Sequence record: OK272476.1
Length of the DNA: 64,000 nt
From: Escherichia phage JLBYU24
Reading direction: 5' to 3' (one strand)
A program made the position numbers and the translations under genes. The notes beneath the pieces were generated by a model that saw only the letters and a list, made by a program, of their open reading frames with translations, searched no databases and was not told the DNA's origin. Positions 2,449-60,167 of the stretch are shown here, piece after piece. Every line of letters begins with the position of its first letter. The first letter of the stretch is position 1.

Positions 2449-4268
2449 TACTGGCTCATCCATTCTTTACGAAGGTCAGCATTATCTCCCATGAGCATTT
2501 CAAAAAGCTCTTTCCAGTTCTCAGGAAGTTTAACAACATCATATACTGGATTTTGAATCATTTCACGATATTCAGATTTTTCCAAAGAGCCAAGTCCTTT
2601 AATATAACGGATGCTATGTTTAGGTAGAGCATCTTTGGCACTCTCATATTCAGCGACTGTATAAAACCATTCTTGTTTTTTACCGACCTGAGCGATGATT
2701 ACAGGAGTTTTGACAAAGCGAATTCGTCCTTGCTCAAACAATTCTGGCCAATTACTAAAAAACCCGAGCAGAGAAGGATAAATGCTTCCTAGACCATCAT
2801 GGTCAGCATCAGTCATAATAGCAATATTATGATAATTCAAGTTTTCAGCTTTTTCACCAAGAACTAATCCAGTGATTGCGCAAATATCAAATAGTTCTTT
2901 GTTTTTAAGCATATCAGCATATGACATACCCCAACTGTTGAGAACTTTACCACGCAATGGATAACCACCATGAAGTTCTTTATCACGAACATCAATAAGA
3001 TATCCGATAGCAGAATCACCCTCAGTCAAGAAAAGAGTAGTATCAGCATCTTTACCGCACAGATTAGCTTTAATATGTTTATGAACCTTTGCCTTAGAAG
3101 CCTTTTTAGCTGCTTTAGTTTCAGCTGCTTTTTCTGCTGCCAATTTACGAGCTAGTGCAGCTTCAATAATTGGCATCAGAATTGCTTCATTATTTAGAAT
3201 AGCGCGTGAAATCTTTTTAGCGTCAAGTTGAATATGACTACGGATTTCACCAAATGGAGAAGTCAAACGCTCTTTAGTTTGAGAATCAAATCGCATGTTT
3301 TTCATATCACGGACAAACATAACGATAGTCAAACATTCTTTGACACGTGCTTTAGTTACATCAATTTTGAACTTACGTTTGATTTGTGGAATAAGGTCTT
3401 CACAAATATCATCCATAACACAGTCAATGTGATGGCCACCATTCTTAGTGTGAATGTTATTCACATAAGTTAATTGGCGAAATCCATCCGGTGAACGACC
3501 AACCGCAATAGAACAATTTTCTTGTTCTTGAACAATAGCATGTTCATCATACTGTCGTGCATATTTCTTAAAATTGCCCTGAACCTTTTTACCATTAAAG
3601 GTAAATTGAATATCAGGATAAACTACTGCAAGTGTCTGGAGACGATCCAGTGTAATGTCAAGATAAACTTGGGACAGCTCATTAGTTTCAAATGACATAA
3701 AATCTGGAATGAAAGTAACACGAGTTCCTTTCCATTTTCCAGGAATAGTTTCCCAGGATTTATTTTCCATGCCATTTGAACAACGAACTACAATATTATT
3801 TTGACCATCGCCAGTTTCACCGACAAACATCACAGAAAAAATGTTTGTCAAACTAGAACCAACACCATTCATACCACCGGTGACGCGTTCTTTATCATCA
3901 CCGAAGTTACCACCCGCTTTTGGAATAGTCCAAGCAGCAACTGGACCAGGAATTTCTTCACCAGTAGGTGTTTTAACCATCGCTTGTGGAATACCGCGAC
4001 CGTTATCTTCAACTGTTACTTGATTGTTTTTAATAGTAACATTAATTTTATTTGCGAATTTAAACTTAGTACGAATACCTTCATCTACTGAGTTATCGAT
4101 AATTTCATCAATAAGCTTAACAAGACCAGGTACATACTGAACACTTTCCCATTTACCAAACAGAAAGCGCTCATGCATTTCATTAGCAGAAGAACCAATG
4201 TACATGCCGCTACGCTTTTTGATATGTTCAATATCGCTCAGAATTTTAATTTCATTCTTAATCATCAC
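2448..4268 (-). CDS. 39: DNA topoisomerase II large subunit, continuous ORF covering T4 gp39 plus gp60-equivalent C-terminus
   Basis: 606 aa; GyrB-like ATPase motifs (IDNSVDEG); TOPRIM-like MTDADHDG segment read without interruption. Confidence 0.9.
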   Translation of the reverse strand: MMIKNEIKILSDIEHIKKRSGMYIGSSANEMHERFLFGKWESVQYVPGLVKLIDEIIDNSVDEGIRTKFKFANKINVTIKNNQVTVEDNGRGIPQAMVKTPTGEEIPGPVAAWTIPKAGGNFGDDKERVTGGMNGVGSSLTNIFSVMFVGETGDGQNNIVVRCSNGMENKSWETIPGKWKGTRVTFIPDFMSFETNELSQVYLDITLDRLQTLAVVYPDIQFTFNGKKVQGNFKKYARQYDEHAIVQEQENCSIAVGRSPDGFRQLTYVNNIHTKNGGHHIDCVMDDICEDLIPQIKRKFKIDVTKARVKECLTIVMFVRDMKNMRFDSQTKERLTSPFGEIRSHIQLDAKKISRAILNNEAILMPIIEAALARKLAAEKAAETKAAKKASKAKVHKHIKANLCGKDADTTLFLTEGDSAIGYLIDVRDKELHGGYPLRGKVLNSWGMSYADMLKNKELFDICAITGLVLGEKAENLNYHNIAIMTDADHDGLGSIYPSLLGFFSNWPELFEQGRIRFVKTPVIIAQVGKKQEWFYTVAEYESAKDALPKHSIRYIKGLGSLEKSEYREMIQNPVYDVVKLPENWKELFEMLMGDNADLRKEWMSQ

Positions 4269-4336: not shown

Positions 4337-4607
4337 ATTTAAAACGGATAGTCGAATCCTTGAAGAATAGACCAGAACATACTGTTCCTTCTACTTTCTG
4401 CCCGGTAGGTCCAATAGCACGAAATCCAGTATGTTGGAAATCATTTTCAGAGCAACCGAACCAATTATATCCAGTGATTTCAATATTAGTAAAACCGCTT
4501 GAAGACAAAATTTTGGTTGCATTATCAGCATCAGTACATCCTACTAAAGATACTGCTAATACTAATGCTGCGATAGAACGATTAACATATTTCATAATTT
4601 CACTCAA
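4335..4607 (-). CDS. putative lipoprotein
   Basis: 90 aa; N-terminal signal peptide with LVGC lipobox-like motif. Confidence 0.5.
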   Translation of the reverse strand: MSEIMKYVNRSIAALVLAVSLVGCTDADNATKILSSSGFTNIEITGYNWFGCSENDFQHTGFRAIGPTGQKVEGTVCSGLFFKDSTIRFK

Positions 4608-4977
4608 ATTTAATGGCTTGAAGAAGACTAATAATTCTCAAGCGACTTCTTTCATCTTTAACTGTAAAAGAAAGAGGGTCACCAGATTTCATAGTGATGG
4701 TGCATCCAAAATCAAAATCTTCTGTAACTTCTTCGAAGAAGTCAAATTCTTCATCATAAATTAGAACATTACTCTGAAAGCTGTGAAGAATTTTTCCATC
4801 ATTTCCAGATGCTGTACTAATCATTGTAACATTATGACCTTTCATATCTTCAACGATAAATTCGCTTGTAGATATTACAGCATTAATAGAACCATTCCTA
4901 TAAATAGCAGACATTAGATATTTCTTTTCTTCGCCTTCGCGAATACGATATTTCTTACCGATTTTAAACATAATCAC
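4600..4977 (-). CDS. hypothetical protein
   Basis: 125-aa ORF; track start is GTG at 4975-4977, likely ATG start at 4969-4971. Confidence 0.45.
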   Translation of the reverse strand: MIMFKIGKKYRIREGEEKKYLMSAIYRNGSINAVISTSEFIVEDMKGHNVTMISTASGNDGKILHSFQSNVLIYDEEFDFFEEVTEDFDFGCTITMKSGDPLSFTVKDERSRLRIISLLQAIKFE

Positions 4978-5150
4978 CCTTTAAGTAAATCGTAAAAACC
5001 ACCATTCACATGCTTAGGAGCAGAAGGCCGACGAGTAGACAAACGATGACATTTAGGGCAAACATCATTTTCTCGTTCAGAAATCTTTTTAATTTTTTCA
5101 TATTCATGCCCGCAATCTTCGGATTGGCATTTATAATCATACATTGGCAT
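4974..5150 (-). CDS. small zinc-ribbon protein (CxxC-x17-CxxC)
   Basis: 58-aa ORF below ORF-track cutoff; AAGGAA RBS 6 nt upstream of ATG; MPMYDYKCQSEDCGH...CPKCH. Confidence 0.45.
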   Translation of the reverse strand: MPMYDYKCQSEDCGHEYEKIKKISERENDVCPKCHRLSTRRPSAPKHVNGGFYDLLKG

Positions 5151-5806: not shown

Positions 5807-6088
5807 TTAATTAAACAGTGGAGCGATACGTTTCAGAAGAGTAGCAGCACCTTTGGCGAATTTTACATCATGAAAAACAGTTTCTTCTTCCGTTACAACA
5901 CGAGCTTTAATGTTTTCACAATCCCAATTTTTGCGAACAATCTTCAAAAGCTGCAGTAAATCTTTACATTCAGCAATATCGATAACACATCCACGAGAAT
6001 CTTCCATTATAGCACGATAACCGTAAGCCATACCATAATCGTTGAAAGATTGCTCGATGATAATTAAGTTTTCCATTTTATTCTCCAA
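5807..6088 (-). CDS. hypothetical protein
   Basis: 93-aa ORF in operon context. Confidence 0.45.
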   Translation of the reverse strand: MENKMENLIIIEQSFNDYGMAYGYRAIMEDSRGCVIDIAECKDLLQLLKIVRKNWDCENIKARVVTEEETVFHDVKFAKGAATLLKRIAPLFN

Positions 6089-6183
6089 GTTGTTTTCTGT
6101 ATCAGTAGTTGATATTGATATAGTACCATAATCAACTACTGATGTATATAGTTTTATGAAAAAATTTTAAACTTTATGCAAAT

Positions 6184-6603
6184 TTATGCTAAAGCTGCTT
6201 CGCACCATTTTTTAATTTGGAATTCAGGAACTACCATGAACTGGCCTGCAAAAACAATATTGTAGAGCTTGACACCATCTTCTACCCAACGGTCCGAAAT
6301 AAAACCAGCGACTTGATTCGTTGTCCATGGAGTTCCATCTGTTGCCGCCGCAATTGTGAATTTATGGTCTTTTACAACTAAAACTGAAGAACAAAGTTTC
6401 CATTTAAATGCGCTTTCTTCTGGCTCAATGAACTGACTTGAGACATAACCAATGTTACCATCAGCGTCACGAACTTTAACCTCGTTACGACCAAAAACTG
6501 GATCACTTACAGAAAGAACTTCAACCAGCTTTCCTGCAACTTTAGAACGAGAAGCAACGGATACATATACGTAATCACCAGTAGAGAGATTTACAATATT
6601 CAT
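6184..6603 (-). CDS. MotB-family paralog
   Basis: shares N-terminal SASRSK(V/A)AG(K/R)LVEV and C-terminal WVEDGxKLYNIVF motif with ORF 6613-7131. Confidence 0.5.
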   Translation of the reverse strand: MNIVNLSTGDYVYVSVASRSKVAGKLVEVLSVSDPVFGRNEVKVRDADGNIGYVSSQFIEPEESAFKWKLCSSVLVVKDHKFTIAAATDGTPWTTNQVAGFISDRWVEDGVKLYNIVFAGQFMVVPEFQIKKWCEAALA

Positions 6604-16791: not shown

Positions 16792-16992
16792 ATGGTACAA
16801 AAATTAATGGCACTTGTTAATGCCATAAAAGGTAATAAAAAACGTATAGCTTTTACTATTTCTGCTATGGTAGGAATTTTACTCTGGAACTTTATTCTAT
16901 CACCTGTTGCAATTGCACATGGTATTAATATTCCAGTAGTTACTCTTGATACATTTGTAGATTTAGCATTTGCTTTAGTTGGGTTAATTTAA
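16792..16992 (+). CDS. small hydrophobic protein on the plus strand
   Basis: 66 aa; strong SD taaggagga 5 nt before ATG; two predicted TM segments; intergenic between genes 56 and 61. Confidence 0.4.
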   Translation: MVQKLMALVNAIKGNKKRIAFTISAMVGILLWNFILSPVAIAHGINIPVVTLDTFVDLAFALVGLI

Positions 16993-18543: not shown

Positions 18544-19176
18544 TTAACCTTTATTCATAAAAGCATTAAAAATTTGATCGTCAATAGAAACTTTTACTTT
18601 AGGCTGTTCTTCAAACGGTAATTCATATCCACATATTACAATTTTGTGATCGATACCAAAATACACAGAAGCAATATTATTAATATTATTTTCAGTGAAA
18701 TCTAAATCAACATCAATATCTTTTTGACTAACGCTCAAAGGATAATTAATACGAATAATTCGATTATCTTTAACAAAGATTCCACCGACATACTCTGTGC
18801 TGCGTTTAAAGTTTACACGTTTCCTAAATGAAAAATATTCAGGTTCTTTATGCGCTCGACTCATAGGGCTTAAAGTGTATTCCGAATATGAAATATCAAA
18901 TCCTACACCTTCAATATGAGCCAAAGTGTCATGATTAAACCAATTATAATCGTATGCCAAATCCATTAAATTGTAATATGTGAAAGGCACCGGATTAACA
19001 TCATATGTTGTACCTTTAAAATCTGCCCAGGCAACGATTTCGTTATCTTTAACAATTACAAAAATTGTGCCAATAAGATATCCACGGTTATTTTCATCAG
19101 GTGTTATATTATAACATTGTGCATCAGGAAATTTACCGTATTTAAACGGTGGATTTTTGTGCATATAATAAATCAT
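18544..19176 (-). CDS. hypothetical protein
   Basis: 210 aa; C-terminus SIDDQIFNAFMNKG. Confidence 0.45.
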   Translation of the reverse strand: MIYYMHKNPPFKYGKFPDAQCYNITPDENNRGYLIGTIFVIVKDNEIVAWADFKGTTYDVNPVPFTYYNLMDLAYDYNWFNHDTLAHIEGVGFDISYSEYTLSPMSRAHKEPEYFSFRKRVNFKRSTEYVGGIFVKDNRIIRINYPLSVSQKDIDVDLDFTENNINNIASVYFGIDHKIVICGYELPFEEQPKVKVSIDDQIFNAFMNKG

Positions 19177-57546: not shown

Positions 57547-57732
57547 TTAAAGCGTATTCACATAAGCTATTAATTCATTTTCTTTCTTATCAAACCGGTC
57601 AGCAAATTCTTCTTGTTGTTCGGGAGATAGCGGGCCGTATTCATCATAAAAGGTGTTTGCTTCTGTATGCTCATCTAGAAGTTCATGGATAAGCTCAAAC
57701 AATTTATCTTTTTGTTCTTTACTTAGACTCAT
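57547..57732 (-). CDS. hypothetical protein
   Basis: 61-aa acidic ORF. Confidence 0.4.
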   Translation of the reverse strand: MSLSKEQKDKLFELIHELLDEHTEANTFYDEYGPLSPEQQEEFADRFDKKENELIAYVNTL

Positions 57733-57898
57733 ATATTAATTTCCAGGAGTTTTAAAATAATTCGCTTTTGCTTAAATATTTCCATAGTTAAATGACCAGT
57801 ATCTTTTTGACCGATTCCAATGGCAAAACCTTTATTAACAGCGAGTTCAATTAAATTATCAAGCTCACGTAACACTTCGTATTGTAACTCAAAACTAT

Positions 57899-58126
57899 TC
57901 ATTTTGGTTTACCTTCTTTAACGAAATCAGGATAAGGATAAAATCCTGAATAAAATCCTTCACCTTTATGATTGATGCATCCTTTATTAGAACAATAGCA
58001 CCAATAATCGAAATCACAAGCCATTTCATCGTTGCATAAAGCAAAAACAACAGGCCACTTACACTTTTCACAGTGGGCATTTTTAAGAATACTAGTTTGG
58101 CTCATAACCATGTAACCTTTAAGCAA
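57899..58126 (-). CDS. Cys-rich small protein (putative metal-binding)
   Basis: 75 aa with about 9 Cys including CEKCKW. Confidence 0.4.
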   Translation of the reverse strand: MLKGYMVMSQTSILKNAHCEKCKWPVVFALCNDEMACDFDYWCYCSNKGCINHKGEGFYSGFYPYPDFVKEGKPK

Positions 58127-58314
58127 TATTCTTCTACATGTTGTTTACGACCTTTCTTATCAATAAAGGTATATTCAACGAATGTTCCAATGTAGTCTTT
58201 ATCTACATCATGTGGACTATTAATTGGACATTTAGTACGGCAAATGCGTTCCCATTGACGAATAATTACTGCTTTGTTTTTAGGATCAAACGGATGCGGG
58301 TAATGTACTTTCAT
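58102..58314 (-). CDS. hypothetical protein
   Basis: 70-aa ORF. Confidence 0.4.
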   Translation of the reverse strand: MKVHYPHPFDPKNKAVIIRQWERICRTKCPINSPHDVDKDYIGTFVEYTFIDKKGRKQHVEEYCLKVTWL

Positions 58315-58765
58315 AATCCACCACTATTAAATCAATATCAGGAGTAAACATGTCGATTAATTTAGAAACCTTATCCCAATCGCCGCCAGCAATACCACAA
58401 CCTATGCGTGGAATGTAAATTACCGGTTTAAACAAAAGGGTTTCTGCCTGTAGATTTAATTCTATCATGCAGTTTACTAAAGCACCATAATCAAGATTAG
58501 GACCTGGTTCGTATTGCGTATACAAGTTATAACATATGCCAAAACCATTAGGTTTATGTTTAAAAACAATAGACATATCGCCTAATTTATCACGAGAACC
58601 GTACTCAGTAGTGGTTTTATCTATTTCTAAAATTTTGGGATAGGCTCTTGCTAATTGACCAGCTACACCACTGCCCATTGTATGAAAACAGTTACACCCA
58701 TGCGCAATAATATTACCTTCAAGAAAGAGGGCGACAATATCGCCCTTGATATATTTTACAATCAT
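58286..58765 (-). CDS. macro-domain protein (ADP-ribose binding/processing fold)
   Basis: 159 aa; KGDIV...HGCNCFHTMGSGVAGQLA and IPRIGCGIAGGDW macro motifs. Confidence 0.6.
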   Translation of the reverse strand: MIVKYIKGDIVALFLEGNIIAHGCNCFHTMGSGVAGQLARAYPKILEIDKTTTEYGSRDKLGDMSIVFKHKPNGFGICYNLYTQYEPGPNLDYGALVNCMIELNLQAETLLFKPVIYIPRIGCGIAGGDWDKVSKLIDMFTPDIDLIVVDYESTLPASV

Positions 58766-59103
58766 CTAGTACTCAATCCTCGATTATAAGAATCTACCAA
58801 ACGGTCAACCATTGAATGACAAGCGGCTTTATCTTTTTCCTCCGCAACTGAACATTCTAAGGTATTCCACTTTTTAGCATATCGTTTTAACAATGTATCG
58901 TTTTTGTATCTGCTTGATTTATCTCTTTCTCCGTCTTTATATGCATATATTAATTTCTGCGCAAATTCAGCTTGGCATGCTTTATTTTTCCCGCAATAAT
59001 CCGCTGCAGTACGGTTTACATACTCTCTAATTTCAGTATATGATGTATCTGCTAACGCAGAAAATGAAATTAATCCTATACATAAAACCAAAATTTTAGT
59101 CAT
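58762..59103 (-). CDS. secreted protein
   Basis: 113 aa; N-terminal signal peptide; 4 Cys in mature part. Confidence 0.45.
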   Translation of the reverse strand: MTKILVLCIGLISFSALADTSYTEIREYVNRTAADYCGKNKACQAEFAQKLIYAYKDGERDKSSRYKNDTLLKRYAKKWNTLECSVAEEKDKAACHSMVDRLVDSYNRGLSTR

Positions 59104-59641
59104 TTACTATTTCCAAAAGTTTATTATTTTTAAGGTAATTAGCCTTTTCTAGGACTTCAGAAGCATATTTAGAACCTGCTTTAACATTCCATCCCGAATT
59201 ATAAGAGGATATTGCTTTTCTTATATCGCCCTTATGTATATTTAACCAATAAGAAAGTTCAATGTACGCCCAGGAAGCTGAATTGGACCGTTTATTCAAC
59301 ATTCTTTTTATTTCAGCATCGGTCATATTATAACCAAGTTCCTTAACTCTTGCTCGCATAGTAGGCAAATAATTTTGGAACATTCCATAAGCGTGATGCT
59401 TTGGTTTAGATTTTAAATTAACTCCGCCAGAGCTTTCTTGCCATAAAATAGCAGCCATTATATGACCTAATCCGCTCTTGTGGATATTTTTGTGTGTTTT
59501 ATATTTTCCATCCTTAGAAAACTGTTCCCCGAATTGATACGCGTAACGCATGTTATCGAGTTGGACATTACTGAAAGTATGCTCGGAGCTATGTGCCATC
59601 ATTGAAATGGCCAATAGACCAGCGAGTAGTGCTTTTCTCAT
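59096..59641 (-). CDS. periplasmic lytic transglycosylase-like protein
   Basis: 181 aa; signal peptide; SLT-like motifs LWQESSGG, AYGMFQ, SSYNSG. Confidence 0.55.
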   Translation of the reverse strand: MRKALLAGLLAISMMAHSSEHTFSNVQLDNMRYAYQFGEQFSKDGKYKTHKNIHKSGLGHIMAAILWQESSGGVNLKSKPKHHAYGMFQNYLPTMRARVKELGYNMTDAEIKRMLNKRSNSASWAYIELSYWLNIHKGDIRKAISSYNSGWNVKAGSKYASEVLEKANYLKNNKLLEIVND

Positions 59642-60137: not shown

Positions 60138-60167
60138 ATTATACCACAGTCAAGAGGAAAAGTAAAC
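60138..60167 (-). promoter_or_regulatory. T4-type early promoter
   Basis: minus strand GTTTAC-N18-TATAAT with tgtgg extension. Confidence 0.6.

Follow-up and report, generated by a model that had tools for sequence, protein, structure and literature searches.

A leftward open reading frame (ORF) at positions 58286–58765 raises the question of which ADP-ribose-related reaction a small macro-domain protein could carry out for a T4-like phage. The window, i.e., the whole 64,000-nucleotide stretch of Escherichia phage JLBYU24 DNA analyzed here, holds the ORF in a locus ordered rI, rI.1, tk, three small ORFs, tk.3, tk.4, vs, vs.1 and regB. Since it lies between vs and tk.3, as tk.4 does in T4, it is the positional ortholog of that gene and represents the JLBYU24 allele of T4 tk.4 (adfM). 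The features of the locus are the following:

58286–58765, minus strand: tk.4/adfM ortholog encoding a stand-alone macro-domain protein (159 aa, ATG start)
58762–58765, minus strand: ATGA, in which the vs stop codon overlaps the tk.4 start codon (from the ORF coordinates)
58286–58314, minus strand: last 29 nt of tk.4, shared with the beginning of tk.3; the divergent DNA has its lower edge here
60138–60166, minus strand: sigma-70-like promoter before regB (TTTACT, 17 nt, TATAAT, with the TG of an extended −10), recognized by its match to the consensus

The tk.4 gene and its macro fold

The ORF matches PHROG 335 (E = 2e-71), and tblastn against 50,697 phage records detected relatives in 2,776 of them. 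Among 1.84 billion cluster representatives, its profile further matches 18,316 with E ≤ 1e-3, of which 1,209 reach E ≤ 1e-30, so that it is a real and common gene and not a chance ORF. The surrounding 2.2 kb are 99.6% identical to Escherichia phage JLBYU31 and 95–99% identical to 437 other T4-like phages of the genus Tequatrovirus. In the GenBank record of JLBYU31 the counterpart is labeled “putative macro domain protein,” RefSeq describes T4 tk.4 as “phosphatase; contains A1pp phosphatase motif,” and an A1pp/macro domain match in tk.4 orthologs was reported in 2006 (PMC1524935). The JLBYU31 annotation also contains noise at this locus, where tk.3 (3603–3815 of the compared sequence, window 58102–58314) is called “ABC transporter ATP-binding protein,” vs.1 (4597–5142 of the compared sequence, window 59096–59641) “endoribonuclease” and several small ORFs “MobD molybdopterin biosynthesis protein.” These odd labels are name transfers from T4 gene symbols.

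The encoded protein covers nearly the whole Pfam Macro profile (PF01661) and scores 33.1 bits (E = 6.2e-8), above the curated threshold of 22. AlphaFold2, supplied with an alignment of 101 sequences from which T4 Tk.4 was left out, predicts a three-layer alpha/beta/alpha macro fold with a pLDDT of 94 and a pTM of 0.89. This model alone was relied on, as prediction from the single sequence was unusable (pLDDT 37.7). A sequence-only reading of the window had recognized a macro-domain protein here and looked to structure prediction for a macro fold; Pfam and the confident macro domain of the model bear it out. The solved structures nearest to the model are BT1257, DarG, Poa1p and TARG1, in which Foldseek concurs, and ThsA ranks far lower. 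Comparison of the profile with PDB sequences returned BT1257 (E = 6e-19), TARG1 (3e-16), SCO6735 (1e-15), Poa1p (5e-14) and DarG (1e-11), and the sole match in PADLOC is DarG (E = 4e-7). These matches place the tk.4 protein among the ALC1-like macrodomains, the class of TARG1, DarG and SCO6735.

The genes around tk.4 are all directed leftward, with stops and starts that overlap or abut. Translation of tk.4 may be coupled to that of vs through the shared ATGA, while the overlap of tk.4 with tk.3, 29 nt in JLBYU24, measures only 4 nt in T4. The nearest sigma-70-like promoter upstream of tk.4 is the one before regB (60166–60138), which probably drives the regB–vs.1–vs–tk.4 run, and the interval between regB and tk.4 contains no match to the MotA box of T4 middle promoters. 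This arrangement points to early expression of tk.4 from the regB–vs transcript. A T4 middle-promoter match does occur inside the tk.4 ORF (58459–58484, minus strand; MotA box TGCTTTA, 13 nt, TAGAAT), approximately 145 nt upstream of the tk.3 start and within the stretch of DNA that is divergent in this allele; the window as a whole has an excess of such matches (17 against 4.9 expected). Terminator-like hits near tk.4 number 7 against 3.0 ± 1.8 expected, an enrichment that is not significant. An 8-bp G+C-rich hairpin at 58728–58746, spanning tk.4 codons 7–13 in the 5′ part that is approximately 98% identical to T4, was flagged as terminator-like on both strands.

Conserved residues and relation to known macrodomains

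Four motifs of the protein contain the residues relevant to ADP-ribose binding and catalysis:

58688–58702, minus strand: H22-G-C-N25-C26 motif; H22, G23, N25 and C26 invariant in 102 homologues
58658–58675, minus strand: G31-S-G-V-A-G36, first glycine-rich ADP-ribose-binding loop; G33 and A35 invariant, G31 in 93/102
58514–58528, minus strand: N80-L-Y-T-Q84; Q84 at the position of the catalytic Lys, according to profile alignments and hhalign
58376–58411, minus strand: P119-R-I-G-C-G-I-A-G-G-D-W130, second (phosphate-binding) glycine-rich loop, from the translation

Conservation was assessed in a set of 102 homologues with 38–97% identity, all of which share H22, G23, N25, C26, G33, A35, D49, N80, Y82, Q84, P119 and W130. 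The first glycine-rich loop had been singled out in the sequence-only reading as a stretch that homologs should keep, and its G33 and A35 are indeed present in every sequence. Residue 36, by contrast, is variable in the family (G in 60/102). A comparison of T4 laboratory stocks lists a Ser36Gly polymorphism in tk.4 (PMC8573959), a site that corresponds here to codon 36 (58658–58660) and the last Gly of the GSGVAG loop. The phosphate-binding loop retains G122 and G124 in 101 of the 102 homologues, and its motif G122-x-G124-x-x-G127-G128 is conserved. Further analysis of 138 representatives of 50%-identity clusters again found N25, Y82 and Q84 invariant; taking the 240 aligned sequences together, N25 and Q84 never change, and H22, G122, G124 and W130 each vary in at most five.

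The positions of these residues allow the active site to be compared with those of characterized macrodomains. N25 corresponds to Asn27 of SCO6735 and Asn22 of DarG, residues whose role is to position the catalytic side chain, and the H and N of the motif align with an H and N of BT1257. The counterparts of Q84 are the catalytic Lys residues K84 of TARG1, K80 of DarG and K78 of PhiKZ AdfM as well as the essential Gln85 of SCO6735. In the profile alignment, Q84 stands opposite TARG1 K84 and a Gln of BT1257, and TARG1 D125 falls opposite A126; hhalign places Q84 opposite K78 of PhiKZ AdfM (gp104). An alternative pairing of Q84 with a residue within the longer loop of BT1257, obtained with single-sequence phmmer, was overruled by the profile alignment and hhalign. 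With a C-terminal half-query against Poa1p, the aligned stretch stops short of the residue opposite Q84. The second loop (PRIGCGIAGGDW) is near-identical to that of SCO6735 (“PRIGCGLAGGTW”) and BT1257 (“PRIGCGLAGGKW”). Judged by these alignments, the active site would be of the SCO6735 Gln/Asn type and not of the Lys type found in DarG and TARG1.

SCO6735 cleaves the thymidine-ADP-ribose made by DarT on DNA and rescues DarT toxicity, for which it needs Gln85 and Asn27 in a mechanism that is probably water-mediated: the Q85A variant is inactive, and little activity is left in N27S (PMC9411070). The feature that marks out SCO6735 and BT1257, a Gln in place of the Lys together with a supporting Asn, is present in the tk.4 protein as Q84 and N25, although the two proteins are cellular, not viral, and share just 26–29% identity with it. 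SCO6735 additionally strips ADP-ribose from a protein, auto-modified PARP1 (PMC9411070), which leaves room for a protein or small-molecule substrate of the tk.4 protein as well. The SCO6735 subclass is said to have a “mobile loop” approximately 5–6 residues longer than that of DarG and TARG1. In the tk.4 protein, however, the loop after the Gln comprises 8 residues (Q84 to Y93) as opposed to 14 in BT1257, where six residues are inserted in comparison with the Tk.4 profile, and the longer mobile loop is absent. As it ranges from 8 to 16 residues among relatives, loop length appears to form a continuum with no clean boundary. By its residues, the tk.4 protein would be expected to work like SCO6735 as a member of the same Gln-type lineage and not as a DarG. 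A Gln-type family member of about 40% identity is also encoded on the chromosome of Pelagimonas phthalicica (6001–6459 of the compared sequence). Its neighbors are housekeeping genes and no darT is found close by, which makes it an orphan like SCO6735 in Streptomyces.

In contrast, DarG (DarG2; structures 5M31/5M3E from T. aquaticus and 5M3I from M. tuberculosis) relies on a catalytic Lys80 where tk.4 has Gln84. The tk.4 protein reaches only 27.8 bits with the NCBIfam DarG model NF048014, which has a cut-off of 250, and its 159 aa match positions 3–144 of the 329-position PADLOC DarG model, so that the C-terminal DarT-binding domain of DarG is missing. The genes adjoining tk.4 are vs and tk.3, and neither is a darT. 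Being below the DarG cut-off and lacking the Lys, the DarT-binding domain and an adjoining darT, the tk.4 protein is not a DarG. Human TARG1 (C6orf130/OARD1) likewise differs in its catalytic dyad, K84/D125 as opposed to Q84/A126 in tk.4, and yeast Poa1p is an ADP-ribose-1″-phosphatase with extra insertions.

A second phage protein with the name AdfM, the chimallivirus protein gp104 of PhiKZ, removes thymidine-ADP-ribose from oligonucleotides in vitro (Cell Rep 2026, PMC13309987). Its active site consists of N23 and K78, and the protein is a late product that is imported into the phage nucleus (PMC13309987). Like tk.4, it is a phage-encoded stand-alone macrodomain, and it counters DarTG2, but its kinship with the Tk.4 family is remote (23% identity; E = 8e-9 in hhalign), and it is of true DarG type, with a match of E = 9e-25 to M. 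tuberculosis DarG and an FPTK motif. With gp104 being DarG-type and tk.4 Gln-type, the two AdfM proteins represent two different macrodomain subclasses, and the invariant Gln implies that they use different catalytic solutions.

Probable role against DarTG2

For T4, both the gene (tk.4/adfM) and its role have been described, and its function is essentially answered in the literature. T4 lacking both adfA and adfN stays resistant to DarTG2, from which a further anti-DarTG2 factor was to be expected (PMC11825919), and this fits the later finding on tk.4. In a T4 transposon library grown on a DarTG2 host (HIDEN-SEQ), tk.4 was the single significant, conditionally essential gene; a clean tk.4 knockout sensitized T4 to DarTG2, and the gene was renamed adfM, for anti-DarT factor, macrodomain (bioRxiv 10.1101/2025.11.20.689424). 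This preprint of November 2025 proposes DNA de-ADP-ribosylation by AdfM on the basis of genetic evidence for the T4 allele (bioRxiv 10.1101/2025.11.20.689424). The CmdTAC paper contains nothing on phage macrodomains. Only two points go beyond this literature, an active site of the Gln type and the cassette-like divergence of the allele, and both are incremental.

We consider it likely that tk.4 encodes an early-made, stand-alone glycohydrolase which removes the ADP-ribose placed by DarT2 from thymidines of phage DNA by chemistry of the SCO6735 type. In the proposed sequence of events, DarT2, the toxin of the host DarTG2 system, would attach ADP-ribose to thymidines of single-stranded phage DNA and thereby block replication. 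The tk.4 protein, probably made early from the regB–vs transcript, would use its two glycine-rich loops to bind the ADP-ribose and would hydrolyze the ribose–thymine bond, so restoring normal DNA. Asn25 would position Gln84 for water-mediated catalysis as in SCO6735. Removal of thymidine-linked ADP-ribose is the chemistry to which these likenesses point, and the JLBYU24 allele, at 58% identity, would be expected to confer DarTG2 resistance as the T4 allele does. The idea, raised from sequence, that the protein reverses host ADP-ribosylation holds up in part: reversal fits the genetics of T4 tk.4 and DarTG2, but the target would be thymidine in phage DNA and not a protein.

Other roles have to be weighed against hydrolysis of thymidine-ADP-ribose. 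The sequence-only reading had noted ModA and ModB in the same window, correctly (99% and 96.6% identity to T4, respectively), and had suggested that the macrodomain erases or reads their marks. Extended to the ADP-ribose or RNA marks which Alt, ModA and ModB leave on host proteins, such a role could draw on the activity of SCO6735 toward PARP1 (PMC9411070), but it appears highly improbable. Alt, ModA and ModB are arginine-specific ADP-ribosyltransferases of the cholera-toxin family, with Arg265 of RNA polymerase alpha as the ModA target. ADP-ribose on arginine is a substrate of DraG/ARH enzymes, while macrodomains of the MacroD and TARG1 types act on Asp/Glu esters and O-acetyl-ADP-ribose (PMC8120803). 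The arginine linkage makes tk.4 chemically unlikely as an eraser of these marks and leaves the suggestion unsupported. Furthermore, tk.4 and modA/modB occupy separate places, approximately 45 kb apart, and the T4 transposon screen linked it specifically to DarTG2 (bioRxiv 10.1101/2025.11.20.689424). Even slimmer is the chance that tk.4 degrades or sequesters ADP-ribose-derived immune signals of, e.g., the Thoeris gcADPR type. Nothing in the present analysis points to the degradation of defense signals that had been proposed from sequence: every one of the nearest structures is an ALC1-like enzyme that takes ADP-ribose off macromolecules, ThsA ranks far below them, and no genetic link of T4 tk.4 to such signaling systems has been reported (bioRxiv 10.1101/2025.11.20.689424).

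A small-molecule activity, either as a Poa1p-like ADP-ribose-1″-phosphatase or as an O-acetyl-ADP-ribose deacetylase that cleans up by-products of, e.g., RNA repair or NAD metabolism, is improbable as the main function. The comparable similarity of Poa1p to the tk.4 profile (E = 5e-14) was counted against the thymidine-hydrolase reading, but the whole ALC1-like class scores similarly, and the “A1pp phosphatase” label derives from domain naming and not from an assay. The phosphate-binding loop and the Asn/Gln pair are closest to SCO6735 and BT1257, and DarTG2 sensitivity is the sole phenotype known for a tk.4 ortholog (bioRxiv 10.1101/2025.11.20.689424). The two kinds of activity would not be mutually exclusive, however, and a phosphatase or deacetylase side activity may accompany hydrolysis of thymidine-ADP-ribose. 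Similarly improbable is a protein that neutralizes DarT2 mainly by binding it as an antitoxin mimic, with an allele divergence that tracks DarT2 variants. Such binding has precedents in the catalytically dead SCO6735 Q85A, which still inhibits DarT by interaction and more strongly than DarG or TARG1 mutants do (PMC9411070), and in AdfB of ICP1, which acts by direct toxin binding; a tk.4 allele sharply diverged within near-identical flanks would also suit it. Against it stand the strict retention of N25, Q84 and the glycine loops across 240 sequences, which argues for a retained enzymatic function, and the missing DarT-binding domain of DarG.

The finding bears out that T-even phages carry layered counter-measures to DNA ADP-ribosylation, with AdfN acting against DarT1, Tk.4/AdfM against DarT2 and AdfA as a further anti-DarT factor. 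The labels “phosphatase” and “hypothetical protein” attached to tk.4, which is found in approximately 2,800 of 50,697 phage records, are due for replacement.

A divergent allele within conserved flanks

The JLBYU24 and T4 proteins share 58% identity (E = 4e-70, no gaps over 155 residues), in contrast to tk.3 (95.7%), vs (99.1%), vs.1 (100%), regB (99.3%), tk (99.5%) and rI (100%). At the DNA level, identity to T4 is approximately 100% down to 58726, falls to 38–77% across approximately 58290–58720 and returns to 95–100% in tk.3; the synonymous sites of the two alleles are saturated at this degree of protein identity. The two proteins hardly differ in their first 39 residues and have H22, N25, Q84, G122, G124 and W130 in common; the JLBYU24 one is four residues longer (159 as opposed to 155 aa). 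In the phosphate loop, JLBYU24 keeps the family consensus (IGCGIAGGDW), whereas T4 departs from it (IGAGIGKGNW). The JLBYU24-type allele, defined by at least 90% identity, occurs in about 318 phage records, with the T4 type in the band below 60%.

Such a localized replacement is what an arms race or modular exchange would be expected to produce. It is conceivable, though on present evidence rather unlikely, that Tk.4/AdfM constitutes a Gln-type lineage of thymidine-ADP-ribose hydrolases, with a mechanism different from that of the Lys-type DarG and PhiKZ AdfM, in which cassette replacement tunes the alleles to particular DarT2 toxins or linkages. If so, the tuning could proceed via direct toxin binding, as in SCO6735, or via other linkages such as RNA adducts, and the tk.4 allele of a phage would predict which DarTG-type systems it overcomes. 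With its sharp boundaries, the swap offers two naturally occurring variants whose specificity can be compared on different DarTG2 systems.

Other parts of the window also differ from T4. Beside the divergent tk.4, the block between tk and tk.3 (57547–58126, minus strand) forms a second mosaic patch. It includes a small ORF at 57547–57732 with 54% identity to T4 tk.2 and two ORFs without a counterpart at the T4 locus, one at 57729–57902 (PHROG 3452) and a Cys-rich one of 70 aa at 57899–58111 (PHROG 2306). A homolog of T4 gene 61.2 (AdfA, anti-DarT factor) at 18544–19176 on the minus strand encodes 210 aa and is only 73% identical, so that the window holds two anti-DarT loci, tk.4 and 61.2, both of which are diverged relative to their surroundings. 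T4 has dam in the interval from gene 56 to gene 61, and segF in that from soc to 56. In JLBYU24 the distance from 56 to 61 is only 176 nt (16813–16989), T4 Dam and SegF have no match within the 64-kb window (tblastn, E ≤ 1e-5), and gene 56 shares only about 70% identity with its T4 counterpart.
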